Positions 2,132 through 44,020 of a stretch of DNA of 64,000 nt are shown piece by piece. Numbering within the stretch: the first letter of the stretch is position 1; every line of letters begins with the position of its first letter. The notes under the pieces are model-generated. The model was not told the DNA's origin, searched no databases, and saw only the letters and a program-made list of their open reading frames with translations. Source of the stretch: Maliponia aquimaris (GTDB lineage Bacteria > Pseudomonadota > Alphaproteobacteria > Rhodobacterales > Rhodobacteraceae); assembly GCF_900184945.1 (NCBI RefSeq), contig NZ_FXYF01000009.1:94174-158173 (forward strand), written 5' to 3'. The position numbers were made by a program, and so were the translations under genes.

Positions 2132-2815
2132 TCAGTCGAGATTCAGACGGTAGCCGCCTCGGCGGTCGGACCGGATCAGCTGTCGCCAGTCCTTCTGCGA
2201 CTTGAAGACGTCGGCCATTCGCAGGCTCTTGGAGCCGGCGCGCGACAGGATCGCCTTGCCGTTCTGCCAGGGCGCGCCTGCCTGCACCGCCTCGTGCAGC
2301 GCGCGCACGACTTCCGCCTGGATCGGGCCCAGCTTGAACCGGCATCCGTTGCAGCGGACCTCGAAATAGTCGGCCGAGTGGATGAAGGTGGCTTCCTCCA
2401 TCGGCTGGCCGCCGGGCGAGAACCCGGTCTCGACCTCGAAACGGTCGCGTTCATCGCGCCTTAGCAGCAGGTCGCCGATCATGACGAGGACGGGCTGCGC
2501 ATCGCCCCAGGTCTCCGCGTAGTCGGCGCTCGGCGTCCGAAAACTCGCGAGATGAACCTCACCACACCGGAAGAGCTGGAACACATCGCGGGCGTGGAGA
2601 TCGAGCAGACCGCTATGGTAGCCTTGCTCCCATGGCACCTTGTATGGCTCGCCTCGATCGTCCTCCTCGATGTCGCCGAACTCCATGGGCGCGCCGAACA
2701 CGCGCACGGACAGACGCAGCTTGTCGTTCTCCGCGAGGTAGATCAGGTCGGCCTCGGTGATCTGCCACCGCTCAAGGATCTCGGGGAGCGTGAAGTACAA
2801 TTTGTCGATGTGCAT
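2132..2815 (-). CDS. Hypothetical phage early protein, divergent from the repressor (Cro/antirepressor position)
   Basis: 227-aa ORF; first gene of the leftward operon opposite the CI-like repressor. The N-terminal segment (LPEILERWQITEADLIYLAE) is HTH-like. No family assignment. Confidence 0.5.
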   Translation of the reverse strand: MHIDKLYFTLPEILERWQITEADLIYLAENDKLRLSVRVFGAPMEFGDIEEDDRGEPYKVPWEQGYHSGLLDLHARDVFQLFRCGEVHLASFRTPSADYAETWGDAQPVLVMIGDLLLRRDERDRFEVETGFSPGGQPMEEATFIHSADYFEVRCNGCRFKLGPIQAEVVRALHEAVQAGAPWQNGKAILSRAGSKSLRMADVFKSQKDWRQLIRSDRRGGYRLNLD

Positions 2816-2931
2816 TCACTGCCCTCCGCGCCGATTCCCGTGTAAGATGTTTACCTTCTGTTCTTATTCGCTTGACCGGCTTCGATCAATCCGATTTTAT
2901 CCTATTTCATCCACAGATGGGTGGGGATGAC

Positions 2932-3609
2932 ATGACCGAGCACCACACGCTTTCCGACCGCCTCAGAGCCCGGGCCAACCAGCTCGGCATCAGTCCCGCC
3001 CACGTCGCCGAGATGGCCGGCGTGAACCGTTCGTTCGTCTACGACATCCTCCGTGGCCGTTCAGCCCGCCCTGGTATAGACCGGCTGGCCGAGGTCGCCC
3101 GCGTGCTGAAGGTGGATCGCGACTGGCTGATCCATGGCATCGGCGAGGTGGAAGGGAAGCCCCCCTTCTTGGACAATCCTGACGACGCCTTTGTGGCCAT
3201 CGCCCACGCCACCCCGCGCCCGGCAATGGGCGGCGGCGCGGTCGTGACAGAGGACGGCGACACGCCCGGCCGCGTCTATCACTTCCGCCGCTCCTGGATC
3301 CGGAACAGCCTGAAGGCCAGCCCGTCGCAGCTGCGCATCATGCACGTCGAGGGCGACAGCATGGCGCCGACGCTCCTGAGCGGTGACGCGGTGCTGGTCG
3401 ACATGACCCGCCGCGCGCCCAACCCGCCCGGCATCTTCGTGCTGGACGACGGGATGGGGCTGGTCGCCAAGCGGCTCGAGCACATCCCCAACAGCGACCC
3501 GCCCGGGGTGCGCGTCATCTCCGACAACAAGCACTACCCCGAATACGAAAGAACGGCCGACGAGATCCACATCGTCGGCCGTATCCGCTGGTTCGCACGG
3601 GAGATTTAG
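2932..3609 (+). CDS. Phage CI/LexA-type repressor (XRE HTH + S24 peptidase domain)
   Basis: HTH region (LGISPAHVAEMAGVNRSFVYDILRGR) followed by the S24 signature VEGDSMAPTL with downstream VAKRL lysine region. Start ATG 2932 with RBS GGGGA; alternative ATGs at 2872 and 2917. Confidence 0.8.
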   Translation: MTEHHTLSDRLRARANQLGISPAHVAEMAGVNRSFVYDILRGRSARPGIDRLAEVARVLKVDRDWLIHGIGEVEGKPPFLDNPDDAFVAIAHATPRPAMGGGAVVTEDGDTPGRVYHFRRSWIRNSLKASPSQLRIMHVEGDSMAPTLLSGDAVLVDMTRRAPNPPGIFVLDDGMGLVAKRLEHIPNSDPPGVRVISDNKHYPEYERTADEIHIVGRIRWFAREI

Positions 3610-34446: not shown

Positions 34447-34881
34447 TCAGTCGTCATCGCCATCGTCGTCGTCGTCGTGATCGTCATCGTGATCGTCATC
34501 GTGATCGTCGTCGTGATCGTCGTCGTCCCGATCGTCGTGCATGTCGTCATCCTGATGATCATCGTCCCGGAGATCGTCATCGTCCAGAGAGTCTTCGGTC
34601 CGGTCGCGCGTCACCACGCCCGGTTGCGAGATGTCGCCGGGCTCGGCGGTTTCGACCTCCTGCTTGAGCAGGTCGCCATTGGTGCGGGACCAGACCTGTT
34701 CCAGTTTCTCTGTGCCGCGGATGGCCTCGACCTTGATCTGCGACGGGCCGCGCTTGATCTCGATGTGAGTATAGCCCGCGGCGGTCAGGTCCGAAACGAT
34801 CTGGTCCGTCAGAACATCGGCGGTGGCGATGGAAGCAGACAGCAGGCCCGCAAGGGCGGTGACAAGAAGAGTGGGTTTCAC
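34447..34881 (-). CDS. Secreted PepSY-like protein with poly-(Asp/His) C-terminal tail (paralogue of the preceding gene)
   Basis: Signal peptide (MKPTLLVTALAGLLSASIATA), PepSY-like core (AAGYTHIEIKRGPSQIKVEAIRGTEKLEQVWSRTNGDLL), tail DDDHQDDDMHDDRDDDDHDDDHDDDHDDDHDDDDDGDDD. Confidence 0.6.
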   Translation of the reverse strand: MKPTLLVTALAGLLSASIATADVLTDQIVSDLTAAGYTHIEIKRGPSQIKVEAIRGTEKLEQVWSRTNGDLLKQEVETAEPGDISQPGVVTRDRTEDSLDDDDLRDDDHQDDDMHDDRDDDDHDDDHDDDHDDDHDDDDDGDDD

Positions 34882-35149
34882 GGTAAATATCCTTTGGTCA
34901 GGGGTGGAACCGACGACACCGCACGAGGCTGTGTCGCCTGCCCTGTCCTTGCCGCGGGAACGGCGGCCGGGAAATGGACCCTCGGTTTATCCCGGCGCCG
35001 ATAAACCTGCGGACCACGCGCATAAACCTGGGTTTATGCGGGGTTTTGGGGGCCTTTTGCCCGGTTTCGGGGTCTCACCTGCGATGAAAAAGGCCCGGCG
35101 ATCCTATTGACCTGCCGGGCCCTGTTCGGGTCGATGCGCAGGGAACCCG

Positions 35150-36394
35150 TCAGCCGGCCTTGCGGCCCTCGGTACCGGACATGTCCACGCCGAGGTGCTT
35201 GGCCACGGTAAAGATGTCCTTGTCGCCCCGGCCGCAGAGATTCATGCAGATGATGTGATCCCTGGGCAGATCGGGCGCGATCTTGGCCACATGCGCGAGC
35301 GCATGGCTGGGCTCCAGCGCGGGGATGATGCCTTCGGTCTCGCAGCACAGCTGGAAGGCGGCCAGCGCCTCCTTGTCGGTGATCGAGACGTACTTGGCGC
35401 GGCCCACGTCGTGCAGCCAGCTGTGTTCCGGGCCGATGCCGGGATAGTCGAGCCCGGCGGAGATCGAAAAGCCCTCGAGGATCTGGCCGTCGTCGTCCTG
35501 AAGCAGGTAGGTGCGGTTGCCGTGCAGCACGCCGGGGCGGCCGCCGGTCAGCGAGGCGCAGTGTTCCATGCGGTCGTCGACACCCTTGCCGCCGGCCTCG
35601 ACGCCGATGATGTTCACCTCCTTGTCGTCGAGGAAGGGGTAGAACAGGCCCATGGCGTTGGAGCCGCCGCCGATCGCGGCGACGAGGGTGTCGGGGTTGC
35701 GGCCCTCGGCCTCCATCATCTGGACCTTGGTTTCCTTGCCGATGATCGACTGGAAGTCGCGCACCATGGCCGGGTAGGGGTGCGGGCCGGCGACGGTGCC
35801 GATGCAGTAGAAGGTGTCTCGCACGTTGGTCACCCAATCGCGCAGCGCGTCGTTCATCGCGTCCTTGAGCGTGCCGCGCCCCGACGTCACGGGGACCACC
35901 TCGGCGCCCAGCAGCTTCATCCGGAAGACGTTGGGCTGCTGCCGCTCAACATCGTGCGCGCCCATGTAAACCACGCATTTCAAACCGAATTTTGCGCAGA
36001 CGGTGGCGGTGGCGACGCCGTGCTGGCCGGCACCCGTCTCGGCGATGATGCGGGTCTTGCCCATGCGGCGGGCGAGGATGATCTGGCCGAGGACGTTGTT
36101 GATCTTGTGCGCGCCGGTGTGGTTGAGCTCGTCGCGCTTCATGTAGACCTTGGCGCCGCCGAGGCGGTCGGTCAGCCGTTCAGCAAAGTAGAGCGGGCTG
36201 GGGCGGCCGACGTAGTGCTTCCAGAGGAACTCCATCTCGTCCCAGAAGCTCTTGTCCGTCTTGGCTTTTTCGTATTCCGCCTCAAGCTCGAGGATCAGCG
36301 GCATGAGGGTTTCCGAGACGAAGCGCCCGCCGAATATGCCGAAGCGGCCCTTTTCGTCCGGGCCGGTCATGAAGCTGTTCACCAGGTCGTCCAT
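35150..36394 (-). CDS. trpB: Tryptophan synthase beta subunit
   Basis: PLP-lysine motif [17 protein letters not shown], full-length TrpB (414 aa). Confidence 0.9.
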
Positions 36395-36556
36395 ATCGCC
36401 TCTCCCTTGCGCTCTCGGGGCCTGAATATGGCATGTGCGGCGGGAAAGGCCAGAGGCAAAACCGGGCGGCGGGTTTGGTACAAAAGGTACGTCCTGTACG
36501 CGAAAAATGTCGTTTTGTACAAATTCCGGGCCGGCGCAGCGGGTGGGCTGGGGGTC

Positions 36557-36668
36557 AAGGCGCTTCGAAGCGCCTTGGGAAGCGGCCGCGCGGCCGCTTG
36601 CAAGCGCGTTGCAACGCGCTTGGCAACGCCCTTGGAAGGGCGTTGGAAAGGGCCTTCGAAGGCCCTTT
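36557..36668. repeat. Array of five consecutive ~20-22-bp perfect or near-perfect palindromes (AA-N16-18-TT units separated by G-rich 2-3-nt spacers)
   Basis: A 36557..36576 AAGGCGCTTCGAAGCGCCTT; B 36580..36599 AAGCGGCCGCGCGGCCGCTT; C 36602..36621 AAGCGCGTTGCAACGCGCTT; D 36625..36644 AACGCCCTTGGAAGGGCGTT (9-bp arms, GG centre); E 36647..36668 AAAGGGCCTTCGAAGGCCCTTT. Upstream of trpB on the minus strand. Confidence 0.8.
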
Positions 36669-36898
36669 CAGCGCACCCGACGGATCGGGGCGCCGTTGCA
36701 GAAGATGACGAAGTGCCGCCCGTTCTCGACCGCCTGGAAACCGCGGTGCGCGAGGGCCTCGACAAAGGCGCGGCGGCCGACCAGGCGTTCGACATCGCGG
36801 ACCTGGCGTTTGACCACGCCGCCGCGCCGCGCCTCGGCGGAGGAGAACAGCTGGTCGAGCCAGAGGTCGGAGGTGAGATGATCGGGTAGCTGGGCCAT
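36668..36898 (-). CDS. Small hypothetical protein (76 aa), uncertain
   Basis: ORF with host-like codon usage between the MATE gene and the palindrome array. No recognisable domain; the stop overlaps palindrome E. Confidence 0.3.
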   Translation of the reverse strand: MAQLPDHLTSDLWLDQLFSSAEARRGGVVKRQVRDVERLVGRRAFVEALAHRGFQAVENGRHFVIFCNGAPIRRVR

Positions 36899-36934
36899 CT
36901 TCGGGATATCACACCCGGTCTGGTTAATGCGCGG

Positions 36935-38257
36935 TTAAGCCGCCCGGACCGCCCGTTCCAGCGCCGGGTAGCGTGCCGCCAGGGTCACGGCGCGGACGAC
37001 GTAGGCGACCATCAGCGCCGCCCAGAGGCCATGCGCGCCCCAGAGCGGGATCAGCGCCGACACGGCGGCAAAGTAGACCAGCGTGGAAATGGCCATCATG
37101 TTGCGCATGTCGCGGGTGCGGGTGGCGCCGATGAAGATGCCGTCGAGCATCCAGGACGGCAGGCCCAGCACCGGCGTGGCGACGATCCAGGGCAGGAAGC
37201 GGCGCGCGGTGTCCTGCACCTGCGGTTCGCGCGTCATGGCGTCGATGATCGCGCTGCCGAGCAACGCGAAGCCCAGCGCGAAGACGAGGTTGGTCACGAA
37301 CCCCCAGAGGCTGGTCAGCGCCACCGCGCGGCGCAGCGCGGCGATGCGGCGCGCGCCGACCGCCTGGCCCACCAGCGCCTCGGCCGCGAAGGCAAAGCCG
37401 TCGAGCGCGTAGGCCATCACGGCGATGAACTGCATCAGCACCTGGTTGGCGGCCAGTACCACCACGCCGAAACCGGCGCTGTAGTAGACGATGAAGGACA
37501 GCATGATCGCCTGGAGCAGCAGCGAGCGCAGCAGGATGTCGGCGTTCACCATCGCCATGTGGCGCAGGCGGGCGCGGTCGGACACGCGCGGCCAGTCGCG
37601 CCAGGCGGGGGTGGCGAAGGCGGGGCGGCAGAGCCAGAGGCCCAGCGCGAGGCCGGTCCAGTCGGCGATCACGGTGGCCACGGCGACGCCTTCGACGCCC
37701 CAGCCCAGGCCCAGCACGAAGAGCGCGTTCAGCGCGACGTTCAGGCTGACCATCCAGAGTTGCAGCGCCAGCATGGCGCGGGTGTTTTCCAGCGCGCCGA
37801 GCCAGCCGTTGATGCCGTAGATCGCCACGGCGGCGGGGGCCGACAGGATGCGGATCTGCATGTAGGCCGCGGCCAGTTCCTCGACCGCCGCATCGGCGGG
37901 CGAGACGGCAAAGCCGATCCCGGCGATCAGCGGCAGCAGCGGGACCAGCAGCAGCCCCCCTGCCCCGCCGATCATCAGCGCGCGGGTCAGCAGCGCCGCC
38001 ACCTCGGCCCGGTTGCCCGCGCCCTGCGCCTGCGCCGTCAGCCCGGCGGTGCCCATGCGCAAAAAGCCGAAGATCCACAGCACGGCGGTGATCAGCGCCG
38101 CCCCCACGGCGACGGCGGCGATCGGCGTGGCGTCGGGGATCTGGCCGATCACCGCGGTATCGGCCACGCCTTGCAGCGGGATGGTCAGGTTCGACAGCAC
38201 GATCGGCAGCGCGATGCGCAGGACGCGGGCGTGGGTGATGGACGTGGCGTCTTGCAT
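36935..38257 (-). CDS. MATE family efflux transporter (DinF-like)
   Basis: Start taken at MQDATSITHARVLRIALPIVLSNL (ATG 38257). The 240-aa upstream in-frame extension in the ORF track is Pro/Arg-rich junk. 12 TM helices. Confidence 0.75.
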   Translation of the reverse strand: MQDATSITHARVLRIALPIVLSNLTIPLQGVADTAVIGQIPDATPIAAVAVGAALITAVLWIFGFLRMGTAGLTAQAQGAGNRAEVAALLTRALMIGGAGGLLLVPLLPLIAGIGFAVSPADAAVEELAAAYMQIRILSAPAAVAIYGINGWLGALENTRAMLALQLWMVSLNVALNALFVLGLGWGVEGVAVATVIADWTGLALGLWLCRPAFATPAWRDWPRVSDRARLRHMAMVNADILLRSLLLQAIMLSFIVYYSAGFGVVVLAANQVLMQFIAVMAYALDGFAFAAEALVGQAVGARRIAALRRAVALTSLWGFVTNLVFALGFALLGSAIIDAMTREPQVQDTARRFLPWIVATPVLGLPSWMLDGIFIGATRTRDMRNMMAISTLVYFAAVSALIPLWGAHGLWAALMVAYVVRAVTLAARYPALERAVRAA

Positions 38258-38391
38258 CGGCGGTGGCTCTGGCGGCGGGCGCCGGGGGGCTGTCTGCCCC
38301 CCGGACCCCCCGAGGATATTTCTGGCCAGAAGAAACGCAGCTGTGCTTCGGGCGTGTTTCGGGCGTGTTTCGGGCGGCGGGTCGGGGTGTG

Positions 38392-38901
38392 TCAGCCGTC
38401 CTTGCGCGGCATCAGGAAATGCGCGGTGGCCTGGGCGAAGGGGCGGTCGCGGTTGTCCTGCCAGGCCTCGGTGTGGACCGAGGCGTAGCGACGGCCCGAG
38501 CGGTTGACCCGGGCGCGGGCATAGGCGTCGCGCGGCAGGCCGGTGCGCAGGTAGTCCACGGTGAAGTCGATGGTTTTGGGCAGGCGCGGCAGGTTGCCCA
38601 CGGTCATGGTCTCGGGGTCGAGCGCGCCGGATTCGATGTCCTCCCACAGCCAGAACCAGTTCAGCGTGATCATGGCGGTGATCTCGAGAAACGCCGCCGT
38701 CACGCCGCCGTGGATGGCGGGCAGGAAGGGGTTGCCGATCAGCTTGTCGTCGAACGGCAGGAGGGCGGTCAGTTCGTCGCCGCGGCGGTCGAAGCGGACG
38801 CCGAGGTACTGGATGTAGGGCACGCCGGAGACCAGCGCCGAGAGCGCGGCGTCGCGGCGCTGCTTGATCACCTGGACGGGTTCGGGCGGTTTGCGGGCCA
38901 T
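38392..38901 (-). CDS. Hotdog-fold thioesterase (PaaI/DUF4442-like)
   Basis: Start at MARKPPEPVQ (ATG 38901) overlapping the upstream gene's stop (ATGA). Hotdog-like length and pattern. The ORF-track N-terminal extension is low-complexity. Confidence 0.6.
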   Translation of the reverse strand: MARKPPEPVQVIKQRRDAALSALVSGVPYIQYLGVRFDRRGDELTALLPFDDKLIGNPFLPAIHGGVTAAFLEITAMITLNWFWLWEDIESGALDPETMTVGNLPRLPKTIDFTVDYLRTGLPRDAYARARVNRSGRRYASVHTEAWQDNRDRPFAQATAHFLMPRKDG

Positions 38902-43699: not shown

Positions 43700-44020
43700 C
43701 GGCGGTGCGGGTGGCAAGCACGGAATTGAGTATTTGAACCAAGAAGAAACAGGAAGGTCGCACATCGGACCCAAAGGCCAGGGCAGCAGTCGACCTTCCT
43801 GCGGTGCCCGCTCCTCTGGCTAGGGGCGGGGCTTCTCCTTGGGCGGTCATCGGCTCTCCAGCCTGTACCGCACCTACAAGAGTGGCGCGTTAACCTTAAC
43901 GCGCAGTTACCAAATGAGGTGCCTGCTGCTTCTTCTTGGTGAAAATACCTCCACGGGGGTGCGGGGGTGTGAAACCCCCGCTCCGACGGGGCAAACGGGA
44001 ACGACGGGAGACAAGTCGCG

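Follow-up and report, generated by a model that had tools for sequence, protein, structure and literature searches.

We investigated a tight array of five palindromes that lies between a small gene, here called X, and trpB in a 64,000-nucleotide (nt) stretch of DNA from Maliponia aquimaris (Rhodobacteraceae; contig NZ_FXYF01000009.1, positions 94,174 to 158,173), which is referred to in its entirety as the window. Coordinates of the units and the array are positions in this 64-kb window, and the sense strand of the array is the minus strand, along which the order is a MatE gene, X, the array, a 161-nt spacer, and trpB. The spacing agrees with an earlier reading of the same DNA (the original prediction), which had placed the array about 160 nt upstream of the trpB ATG (36394). 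The features of the locus, with unit lengths in base pairs (bp) and the letters of the original prediction in parentheses, are as follows.

36935-38260, minus strand: gene of the MatE efflux family (Pfam PF01554), 36 nt from the start of X
36668-36898, minus strand: X, gene for a basic protein of 76 amino acids (aa), recognized from its translation and conserved homologs
36646-36669: unit 1 (E), GAAAGGGCCTTCGAAGGCCCTTTC, 24 bp, perfect, taking in 2 nt of the TGA stop codon of X (36668-36670)
36624-36645: unit 2 (D), CAACGCCCTTGGAAGGGCGTTG, 22 bp, mismatched solely at the central dinucleotide (GG)
36601-36622: unit 3 (C), CAAGCGCGTTGCAACGCGCTTG, 22 bp, perfect, with a variant TTGCAA center
36580-36599: unit 4 (B), AAGCGGCCGCGCGGCCGCTT, 20 bp, perfect, with a variant all-GC center
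36556-36577: unit 5 (A), CAAGGCGCTTCGAAGCGCCTTG, 22 bp, perfect, the last before the region upstream of trpB
36421-36461, minus strand: putative promoter-like block TTTTGCCTCTGGCC...CATATTCAGG, 13 nt upstream of the Shine-Dalgarno/ATG stretch of trpB (36392-36408)
35150-36394, minus strand: trpB, tryptophan synthase beta chain, recognized from its translation and a Pfam PALP match (E = 1e-40)

Five palindromes in 114 bp

The five consecutive palindromes, four perfect and unit 2 near-perfect, are present as originally described and with the sequences then given, but each unit proved to be one paired base longer. They occupy 36556-36669 with lengths of 22, 20, 22, 22, and 24 bp and gaps of 2, 1, 1, and 0 nt, so that the spacers previously read as GGG, GC, GGC, and GG are really GG, G, G, and none, the supposed G-rich spacers being mostly the outermost base pairs of the palindromes. 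In the whole window (66.7% G+C), perfect palindromes whose arms measure 8 bp or more number only seven; four lie in the array (arms of 10 to 12 bp), and the other three have arms of 8 to 9 bp. As a control for chance, first-order Markov randomizations of the window, which preserve dinucleotide frequencies, gave a mean of 3.1 such palindromes per 64 kb, that is, about 0.006 expected in 114 bp. Four perfect palindromes and a near-perfect fifth within this length are therefore far beyond chance. RNA folding of the window array yields five independent hairpins (−97.6 kcal/mol; z = −6.8), with a 9-bp stem and a 4-nt loop in unit 2, and no alternative pairings between the hairpins, whose arms differ.

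An independent short-read assembly of the same organism (locus L001; Logan contig ERR2000426_97, 7292-7466) reproduces X and the array exactly, and so the array is not an assembly artifact of the window. A 440-aa MatE gene is called on this identical contig, which stops 60 nt beyond the array; the break may or may not relate to the palindromes.

Conservation of the array in Rhodobacteraceae

A pattern search combined with an alignment of X retrieved 80 loci of other species and genera, giving a sample of 81 with the window locus; the genera include Nioella, Roseovarius, Marivita, Ruegeria, Rhodosalinus, Sedimentitalea, Mameliella, and Antarctobacter, and individual loci are cited below by number. 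Palindromes stand directly after X in 80 of the 81 loci, with four units in 46 loci, three in 16, two in 11, five in 4, one in 3, and none in 1. When scored as 9-bp arms with at most one mismatch, they reach a density of 18 per kb in the intergenic region between X and the next gene that holds the array, versus 0.34 per kb in the flanks (457 kb). Among 288 units, the center hexamer is most often TTCGAA (187 units), followed by TTGCAA (25), GTCGAC (9), and CGCGCG (8); the outer frame A-(A/C)-G...C-(T/G)-T is conserved at 90% or more, and the four inner arm pairs vary freely. Neighboring centers are 23 to 25 nt apart in 181 of about 207 pairs. The order of the units is conserved, with typical arms GGGCC, GCCGC, CGCGGT, and GGCGT, and the arms at times lengthen to 13 to 18 bp and are still perfect.

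The array and its unit order are syntenic across dozens of genera, in flanking intergenic DNA that is otherwise unalignable. A comparison of the region upstream of trpB in related genomes had been proposed in the original prediction, for which its absence or lack of conservation there would have been a refutation; the region is strongly conserved. Unit 1 of the window is orthologous to the first unit (AAGGGCC/AAGGGCT-TTCGAA) of most of the 80 related loci, CAAGGCGCTTCGAAGCGCCTTG is also the last unit in L028, L044, L051, and L052, and an all-GC center like that of unit 4 is found in an inner unit in other genera.

Two further observations concern the array itself. Among Marivita loci, whole units have been gained, lost, and reordered: an extra AAGCGGC unit is found in L021 and L023 in comparison with L015, and in L064 the GCCAAT unit comes after the CCGCGT unit, the reverse of the order in L015, L034, and L056. 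From these alignments, the array is dynamic, with the changes affecting entire units. In addition, the called open reading frame (ORF) of X enters the array in about 15 loci. In L019, L077, L078, L079, L060, and L068 (at about 3225 to 3370; several Roseovarius and others), the X frame is unstopped and runs 8 to 45 codons into the palindromes, and the C-terminal extension of X in these loci is translated hairpin DNA.

Association of the array with gene X

The 20-nt core of the first unit begins 0 to 1 nt past the stop codon of X in 40 of the 81 loci. The array is also directly upstream of trpB in 72 of 81, and the trpB located downstream in 72 related loci shares 83 to 96% identity with that of the window. 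The two associations can be told apart where the neighborhood has changed. An extra gene between X and trpB (1.3 kb in L035 and 0.6 kb in L044) leaves the array beside X, and in loci without trpB downstream (L055, L061, L066, and L072) the array still follows X. The gene next after the array there is of the LysR family in L055, L061, and L066 (Pfam-checked in L055, with a near-identical ORF in L061) and a convergent ApbE gene in L072.

The other border of the array is likewise fixed in many genera. The array takes up the entire gap between X and a CTTGHH-N17-YTANNN motif, which follows the last unit in 48 of 72 loci, with the 17-nt spacer in 46 of these 48; it begins 3 nt past the unit core in 31 of the 48, and its second hexamer ends 29 to 37 nt before the trpB ATG in 47. 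It fits CTTGAC-N17-CTATAT, the type of the alphaproteobacterial housekeeping promoter. The window has, in place of this motif, the promoter-like block listed above, which it shares with L025, L028, L032, L042, L051, and L052; most other genera have CTTGHH-N17-YTANNN. A strict sigma-70 scan of this region of the window gave no match, the Escherichia coli consensus being too strict for this GC-rich lineage. Thus, trpB appears from its upstream sequence to be served by a promoter of its own, downstream of the array, and since the array lies upstream of that putative promoter, a role as an attenuator or leader is unlikely. By these positional comparisons, the owner of the array is the X gene family, and trpB is a downstream neighbor by chance.

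Between the array and the promoter block, the window carries an insert of about 55 nt (36472-36527, minus strand; GGAATTTGTACAAAACGACATTTTTCGCGTACAGGACGTACCTTTTGTACCAAACC) that is AT-richer and contains four GTAC(A) motifs. It is specific to the Maliponia genome, has no counterpart in the nearest relatives (e.g., L032), and lies outside the conserved cassette; it could be a regulator site or an insertion remnant.

Covariation of the palindrome arms

We assessed covariation in an ungapped alignment (A3) of four centered units from 40 loci. Changes on both sides are found in 33 of 36 stem pairs, amounting to 206 double-sided cells, where shuffled alignments average 49.7. The score for covariation, 0.443 (0.101 after shuffling), is reached in 0 of 500 shuffles, counts that are not probabilities here or below, as the sequences are phylogenetically related; structures slid by one to three columns give scores of at most 0.07. 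There are about five one-sided (wobble) changes. In all units together, 30 mismatches occur in 2,304 stem pairs, and only 4 of them are G:T. Because near-palindromy was the criterion by which units were picked, the percentage of paired cells is necessarily too high; how many compensatory changes there are, and of what kind, is independent of that selection. The two innermost "pairs," which are unpairable in a hairpin, also covary (24 double-sided cells versus 5.4 expected; 0 of 500 shuffles).

The best hairpins 3′ of trpB in the same loci served as a control. In them, G:U pairs make up about 12%, bulges are frequent, and the loops are asymmetric (1 of 65 is self-complementary); those that are obvious terminators have 4 to 6 U. 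The array units are a class distinct from these hairpins. To judge from the covariation, selection has acted on the capacity of each unit to fold, independently of the others, into a stable hairpin. There is, furthermore, a weak asymmetry of the sense strand, in that spacers contain C 204 times versus G 152 times and asymmetric loops are purine rich by 25 to 11, counts that are not corrected for phylogeny; these asymmetries lean slightly towards RNA.

Gene X and its paralogs

The ORF preceding the array had been called doubtful. Its product is 100% identical to a Maliponia aquimaris protein and has 245 homologs at 60 to 87% identity, all of them small and, where named, all from Rhodobacteraceae; on the strength of these homologs, X is a real conserved gene. 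A full HMMER profile search seeded with X recovered 382 clusters at 50% identity, nearly all stand-alone proteins of 60 to 130 aa, in a family of more than 1,000 members whose named ones are all from Rhodobacterales. Conserved throughout the family are one Cys and a GG..RR motif.

Searches of Pfam and NCBIfam with X gave no match, even at E ≤ 10. In NCBI and UniRef, however, X bears the name N-(5′-phosphoribosyl)anthranilate (PRA) isomerase across many genera. That enzyme, TrpF, is a TIM barrel of about 200 aa (PRAI domain; Pfam PF00697). At 76 aa, X is a third of the size of TrpF, lacks the PRAI domain, and has a small alpha/beta predicted fold, so the name is a propagated misannotation that has spread through many genomes and is corrected here; it probably arose from the position of trpF upstream of trpB in other alphaproteobacteria. 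The AlphaFold2 model of X (predicted local distance difference test score, 88) is a small alpha/beta domain for which comparison with known folds gave no convincing match, and for this reason the structure neither supports nor excludes nucleic acid binding. With 13 K/R versus 8 D/E, the protein is basic, and its charge and strong conservation make it plausibly a nucleic acid binder.

Two observations on its residues stand apart from the above. Across the whole divergent family, the residues kept are solely one Cys (in an FCN motif; C67 in the window protein), Gly-Gly, and Arg; that a protein of 76 aa should have one invariant Cys is a hint of a role that is catalytic, redox related, or metal related. 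A covariation of X residues with array centers was also considered: Q16, otherwise invariant, is replaced only in L030 and L076, both of which have GTCGAC centers. We did not use this association as evidence because GTCGAC is a change of a stem pair (T-A to G-C) that leaves the loop unchanged and because L030 and L076 may be one lineage.

Divergent members of the family, about 35 to 50% identical to X, reside in unrelated neighborhoods. We surveyed 11 such loci, which include the following arrangements.

L203, L206, L207, L208, L210, and L212 (at about 2060 to 2470): SspB-fumC-DUF4169-RHH_4-X
L204 and L205 (at about 2270 to 3080): fumC-small ORF (DUF4169-sized, without a Pfam match)-X-RHH_4
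L213: DUF808-X-convergent transketolase
L209: DAO-X-convergent PhaR

Two to four tandem palindromic hairpins follow the stop codon of the paralog in 8 of the 11 loci; of the other three, two have a single palindromic hairpin, which brings the loci with any hairpin to 10 of 11, and one has none. In seven of the eight loci the tandem hairpins begin no more than 2 nt past the stop; in L212 the distance is 16 nt. The centers are TTCGAA, TTTGAA, TTCAAA, or TTCTAA in four of the eight (L203 to L206); the arms are mostly AT-richer, and the centers are often of odd length or asymmetric. The pairing of the X family with tandem hairpins has thus outlived ancient duplication and relocation, a persistence not readily accounted for by hairpins that are terminators of no particular kind. 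An orphan small-protein family of more than 1,000 members, whose genes in most loci examined are followed by tandem, perfectly paired hairpins, is a testable unit.

Next to fumC, three small genes cluster: a DUF4169-type ORF (with a Pfam match in L203, L206, L207, L210, and L212), RHH_4 (ribbon-helix-helix), and X. In Tabrizicola and Pseudogemmobacter the order differs, with X and its array before RHH_4. By their recurrent proximity, the three may form a functional trio. The paralog array of L212 (Roseovarius salinarum; 2740-2822, minus strand) matched the Rfam SAM-Chlorobi model at 38.6 bits versus a gathering threshold of 35; since the match runs antisense to X, lies at the 3′ end of a gene, and concerns the wrong phylum, we reject it as coincidental, the tandem hairpins and a shared CGGAAAGGUUUU stretch happening to fit the model.

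Copies elsewhere and tests of class membership

In 452 kb of flanking DNA from 80 genomes, only three further sites have such units: pairs of units follow a DUF2237 gene in the Roseovarius loci L053 and L067 (in the latter between convergent genes) and the MatE stop codon in L035. All of these extra copies sit at gene 3′ ends. No further units were found elsewhere in the 64-kb window, and none in 40 kb of a Thioclava replicon. BLAST of a consensus four-unit array against 72,556 plasmids gave only chance-level matches; the sole one in a Rhodobacterales plasmid (Thioclava) lies in coding DNA and is not palindromic.

The elements proposed or suggested by the form of the array were compared with it one by one. 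The units differ and are 0 to 2 nt apart, whereas clustered regularly interspaced short palindromic repeats (CRISPR) are near identical with unique spacers of about 26 to 72 bp; the array is not a CRISPR, as had been concluded before. It is also not a canonical intrinsic terminator, nor obviously a Rho-independent terminator as already remarked, for although GC-rich hairpins are present, the T tract is absent; a terminator scan of 35000-37200 returned 0 terminator-like sites. A trp attenuator is contradicted by the position of the array before the promoter-like motif, by the independence of the hairpins, and by the persistence of the array without trpB. When the array is viewed as a row of operators, the conserved center and outer triplets and the symmetry through the center fit, yet the variable arm positions covary as base pairs. 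Rfam searches found no match at E ≤ 1 in 34500-38500 of the window and none in the arrays of seven trpB-linked loci.

Repetitive extragenic palindromes (REPs) are imperfect palindromes preceded by a conserved GTAG tetranucleotide (PMC8266576). The units here are perfect and unbulged, with GTAG just 5′ of 7 of 288 (mostly from a TAG stop codon) and CTAC 3′ of 1 of 288. A REPtron at this locus can be rejected as well, the adjoining gene X having no Pfam match (E ≤ 10) and no Y1 transposase domain and the neighbors being MatE and trpB; no transposase-like gene lies next to the array. Of the earlier suggestion of a lineage-specific family of REP-like stem-loops or bacterial interspersed mosaic elements (BIMEs), the lineage-specific stem-loop element therefore holds, and membership among REPs and BIMEs does not, in view of the lack of GTAG, the unbulged stems, and the low copy number in the DNA scanned. 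We found no earlier description of such arrays in the literature searched (palindromes of Rhodobacter or trpB, TTCGAA in Rhodobacteraceae, tandem terminators, and palindromic repeats of roseobacters). By the comparative evidence, the array is a strongly nonrandom local instance of a conserved module of Rhodobacterales that consists of a gene plus a hairpin array.

A metagenome scan for TTCGAA-N16-20-TTCGAA-N16-20-TTCGAA returned at least 120 loci; among the matches listed, all are unrelated, mostly low-GC tandem repeats and none with X or trpB, so that the scan is uninformative on distribution. Several of these low-GC contigs (L094, 2030-2240; L097, 5280-5690; L111, 2500-3090; L193; and L157, 4470-4840) contain long tandem arrays with a period of about 25 nt, in which GATATC-centered palindromes (AATTGTTGATATCAACAATT) are joined by TTCGAA to give two alternating symmetry centers. 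The units in L157 are AAGTTCGAACTT, and the organisms are unrelated.

Other hairpins were noted in the window. The palindrome GCGCGTTAACCTTAACGCGC at 43885-43904, put forward earlier as a relative of the array units, does exist, but as a lone hairpin whose center is asymmetric and which has neither the AAG/CTT frame nor TTCGAA, and it is probably unrelated. It lies 3 nt past the stop codon (43907) of a 947-aa minus-strand ORF, with a second hairpin at 43961-43981, and is probably an ordinary 3′ hairpin. Two hairpins 3′ of the trpB stop codon (34984-35040, minus strand) are built on ATAAACC/GGTTTAT (GGTTTATCCCGGCGCCGATAAACC and CGCATAAACCTGGGTTTATGCG). The CGCATAAACCTGGGTTTATGCG type recurs after trpB in L016, L038, and L056, and hairpins of the ATAAAC/GTTTAT type follow trpB in L017, L032, L047, and L071; these are a second conserved hairpin motif at the trpB locus.

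Proposed function and alternative explanations

Taking together the palindromes, their conservation across the family, the covariation of their arms, their linkage to the X family, and their fixed placement with respect to stop codon and promoter-like motif, we infer that the array is transcribed, that it terminates or stabilizes a transcript, and that it is bound by X or another factor. The reading that we tentatively prefer is that it may be a 3′-end hairpin cassette of X that would serve as a transcript boundary or insulator and would be read by a probable dedicated factor, possibly X itself. The row of hairpins, each predicted to fold alone into a GC-rich stem of 8 to 11 bp with a 4-nt loop, would run from the X stop codon to just before the trpB promoter and would most likely be transcribed as the 3′ untranslated region (UTR) of an X or MatE-X mRNA. 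The stack would set the 3′ boundary of the transcript by stopping or stalling RNA polymerase and by blocking 3′-to-5′ exonucleases, and this boundary would insulate the separately promoted trpB from read-through. The extra copies in L035, L053, and L067 fit a 3′-end function, as they too lie at gene 3′ ends. A dedicated reader is suggested by the conserved loop and stem base, the regular spacing, and the hairpins behind ancient X paralogs; it would recognize the loop or center (UUCGAA) and the stem base (AAG/CUU), and the most economical candidate would be X.

A more specific form of this proposal, possible but in our view rather doubtful, is that X and the array may be a dedicated two-part system. 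X, a new family of small basic proteins restricted to Rhodobacterales, would bind specifically to the stem-loops behind its own gene, either in the 3′-UTR RNA or as extruded DNA hairpins, through UUCGAA and AAG/CUU and would thereby control the formation of transcript 3′ ends or transcript stability, including read-through into neighbors such as trpB, with each paralog having its own array.

Several observations weigh against the 3′-end cassette. The arms are almost purely Watson-Crick paired (4 G:T in 2,304 pairs, versus about 12% G:U in the control hairpins), and the symmetry persists in the two innermost positions, which no hairpin can pair; together, these point to a strand-symmetric function at the DNA level or to a mutational origin at that level rather than to a constraint on sense-strand RNA. 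A canonical terminator tail is missing: the first run of T is 2 nt long after 171 of the 288 units, and only 5 of the 288 are followed by 8 nt with at least 5 T. The survey of paralogs is small (11 loci), and the partner in two of them could be an ordinary single terminator. As for origin, template switching in replication creates or repairs perfect stems in single events, without wobble intermediates (PMC8794818). By analogy, it could be the source of the Watson-Crick purity and the central symmetry, and if this is true, the array would show in nature, with unusual clarity, how template switching at the DNA level keeps hairpins perfect. The 206 double changes versus about five wobble changes, along with the symmetry extending into the loop, bear on the debate over G:U intermediates versus template switching in compensatory evolution.

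Among the alternatives to the 3′-end cassette, the one that fares best, though we consider it unlikely, is a DNA-level element for which RNA would be irrelevant. A symmetric, dimeric protein, either X or a different one, would recognize the units as sites in duplex or extruded (cruciform or single-strand hairpin) DNA, at about −50, −74, −98, and −122 from the trpB start, or the units would form a structural or topological boundary as proposed for BIMEs. The full dyad symmetry, which includes the central four bases, and the near absence of wobble pairs speak for such sites, yet duplex reading needs no complementarity at the nonconserved arm positions, where it has been kept through 206 double changes; this is also what the original idea of a multi-operator platform for a dimeric regulator leaves unexplained. 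Moreover, the paralog centers are often of odd length or asymmetric, so that central symmetry is not universal. The center and outer triplets have about the information content of a transcription factor site, the centers are 23 to 25 bp apart in 181 of about 207 pairs, and in many genera the last unit stands at a fixed distance from the −35-like motif; but the promoter block is 70 to 170 nt away in the group of Maliponia, Mameliella, and Antarctobacter, and arrays between convergent genes (L067 and L072) have no promoter to control. X is basic and encoded beside the sites, much as partition protein genes adjoin parS or sopC. AT-rich centers in GC-rich arms favor cruciform extrusion, for which arms of 10 bp are nevertheless short in vivo, and the weak sense-strand asymmetry also runs counter to a purely DNA-level element.

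It is quite improbable that the array is a selfish or neutral repeat, whether REP/BIME-like, similar to miniature inverted-repeat transposable elements, or a by-product of template switching, that gathers at gene 3′ ends and has no function for X or trpB. A repeat of this kind would resemble BIMEs in forming tandem palindromes at gene 3′ ends, co-directional or convergent, would account for the few extra copies elsewhere (L035, L053, and L067), the range of one to five units, and the order in L064 that differs from that of other Marivita loci, and could have been made by template switching, which can produce perfect palindromes (PMC8794818). It is difficult to reconcile with a syntenic array that keeps the same unit order across dozens of genera and with the contrast between 18 units per kb in the intergenic region and 0.34 per kb in 457 kb of flanks. 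Nor were further copies found beyond chance in the window, the 40-kb Thioclava sample, or the 72,556 plasmids; GTAG precedes only 7 of 288 units, and there is no adjoining transposase-like gene.

The least probable alternative, already largely refuted, is a trpB leader, attenuator, or operator whose hairpins would regulate trpB transcription or mRNA stability by tryptophan: the array is directly upstream of trpB in 72 of 81 loci, and trpB, if apart from the other trp genes (the original prediction, in suggesting an attenuation or RNA stability structure, put trpA 12 kb away), would need its own control, but the array abuts the X stop codon in 80 of 81 loci and stays there when trpB is displaced or absent, it lies upstream of the −35/−10-like motif rather than between promoter and gene, the 29 to 37 nt from the second hexamer to the ATG (47 of 48 loci) leave an attenuator no room, no leader peptide with Trp codons, alternative pairings, or Rfam match was found, and tandem hairpins follow X paralogs beside fumC and other genes. 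The array should accordingly not be taken for a trpB regulatory leader.

Comparison with known systems

Intrinsic (including bidirectional) terminators and protective 3′ stem-loops, such as the intercistronic hairpins of Rhodobacter puf, are GC-rich hairpins after a stop codon. The array resembles them in its A...T frame on both sides and its occurrence also between convergent genes, and AAGG...CCTT is common to the single terminators after trpB here. It differs in having no U tract, four or five hairpins in a row at fixed spacing, palindromic conserved loops, and essentially no G:U pairs or bulges. In partition systems with arrays of centromere-like sites, sopC follows sopB and parS follows parB as near-identical sites that are read as duplex DNA and accompanied by a ParA ATPase. 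The likeness lies in a small-protein gene followed by regularly spaced, tandem, dyad-symmetric sites; in the X array, however, the arms differ and covary, there is no ParA, and the location is chromosomal, beside housekeeping genes. In type III toxin-antitoxin systems (ToxIN), an RNA array of identical 36-nt direct repeats lies upstream of the gene for an endoribonuclease toxin of about 170 aa. Here, too, a protein gene is paired with adjoining tandem structured RNA repeats, which the ToxIN protein binds, but the X array is 3′ of its gene and has units that differ, and the evidence of toxicity concerns ToxIN, not X.

REPs and BIMEs with their REPtrons (TnpA_REP/RAYT) are likewise short, often tandem palindromes at gene 3′ ends, co-directional or convergent, that are tied to a protein gene and recognized as single-strand hairpins (PMC8266576). 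They are, in contrast, imperfect, with conserved bulges, GTAG, and hundreds of copies, and their HUH/Y1 transposase gene is flanked by them on both sides (PMC8266576). The units of the X array are perfect, dyad symmetric, without GTAG, and few in copy number in the DNA scanned, and X is a 76-aa protein without a transposase motif.

Small proteins and RNAs derived from 3′ UTRs are an active, underannotated field in Rhodobacterales, of which CcaF1-CcsR is so far the sole worked example. CcaF1, a 71-aa protein of Rhodobacter sphaeroides, binds and matures the CcsR RNAs, which arise by processing of its own mRNA's 3′ UTR (PMC8034643). The order in ccaF1-CcsR1-4 is the same as that proposed here, a gene for a protein of about 70 aa followed directly by about four tandem structured RNA units in the 3′ UTR (PMC8034643), and both systems have several paralogous copies per genome or clade. 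CcaF1 is a DUF1127 protein that binds and affects its RNAs, whereas X, known here from its sequence, has neither DUF1127 nor any other Pfam domain. The CcsR RNAs are longer, two-hairpin "cuckoo" RNAs of similar sequence with CCUCCUCCC loops, in contrast to the 20-bp perfect palindromes with UCGA/UUCGAA loops behind X. If the proposal made here is true, X and its array would be a second module of small protein and 3′-UTR RNA in this order, unrelated to CcaF1-CcsR.

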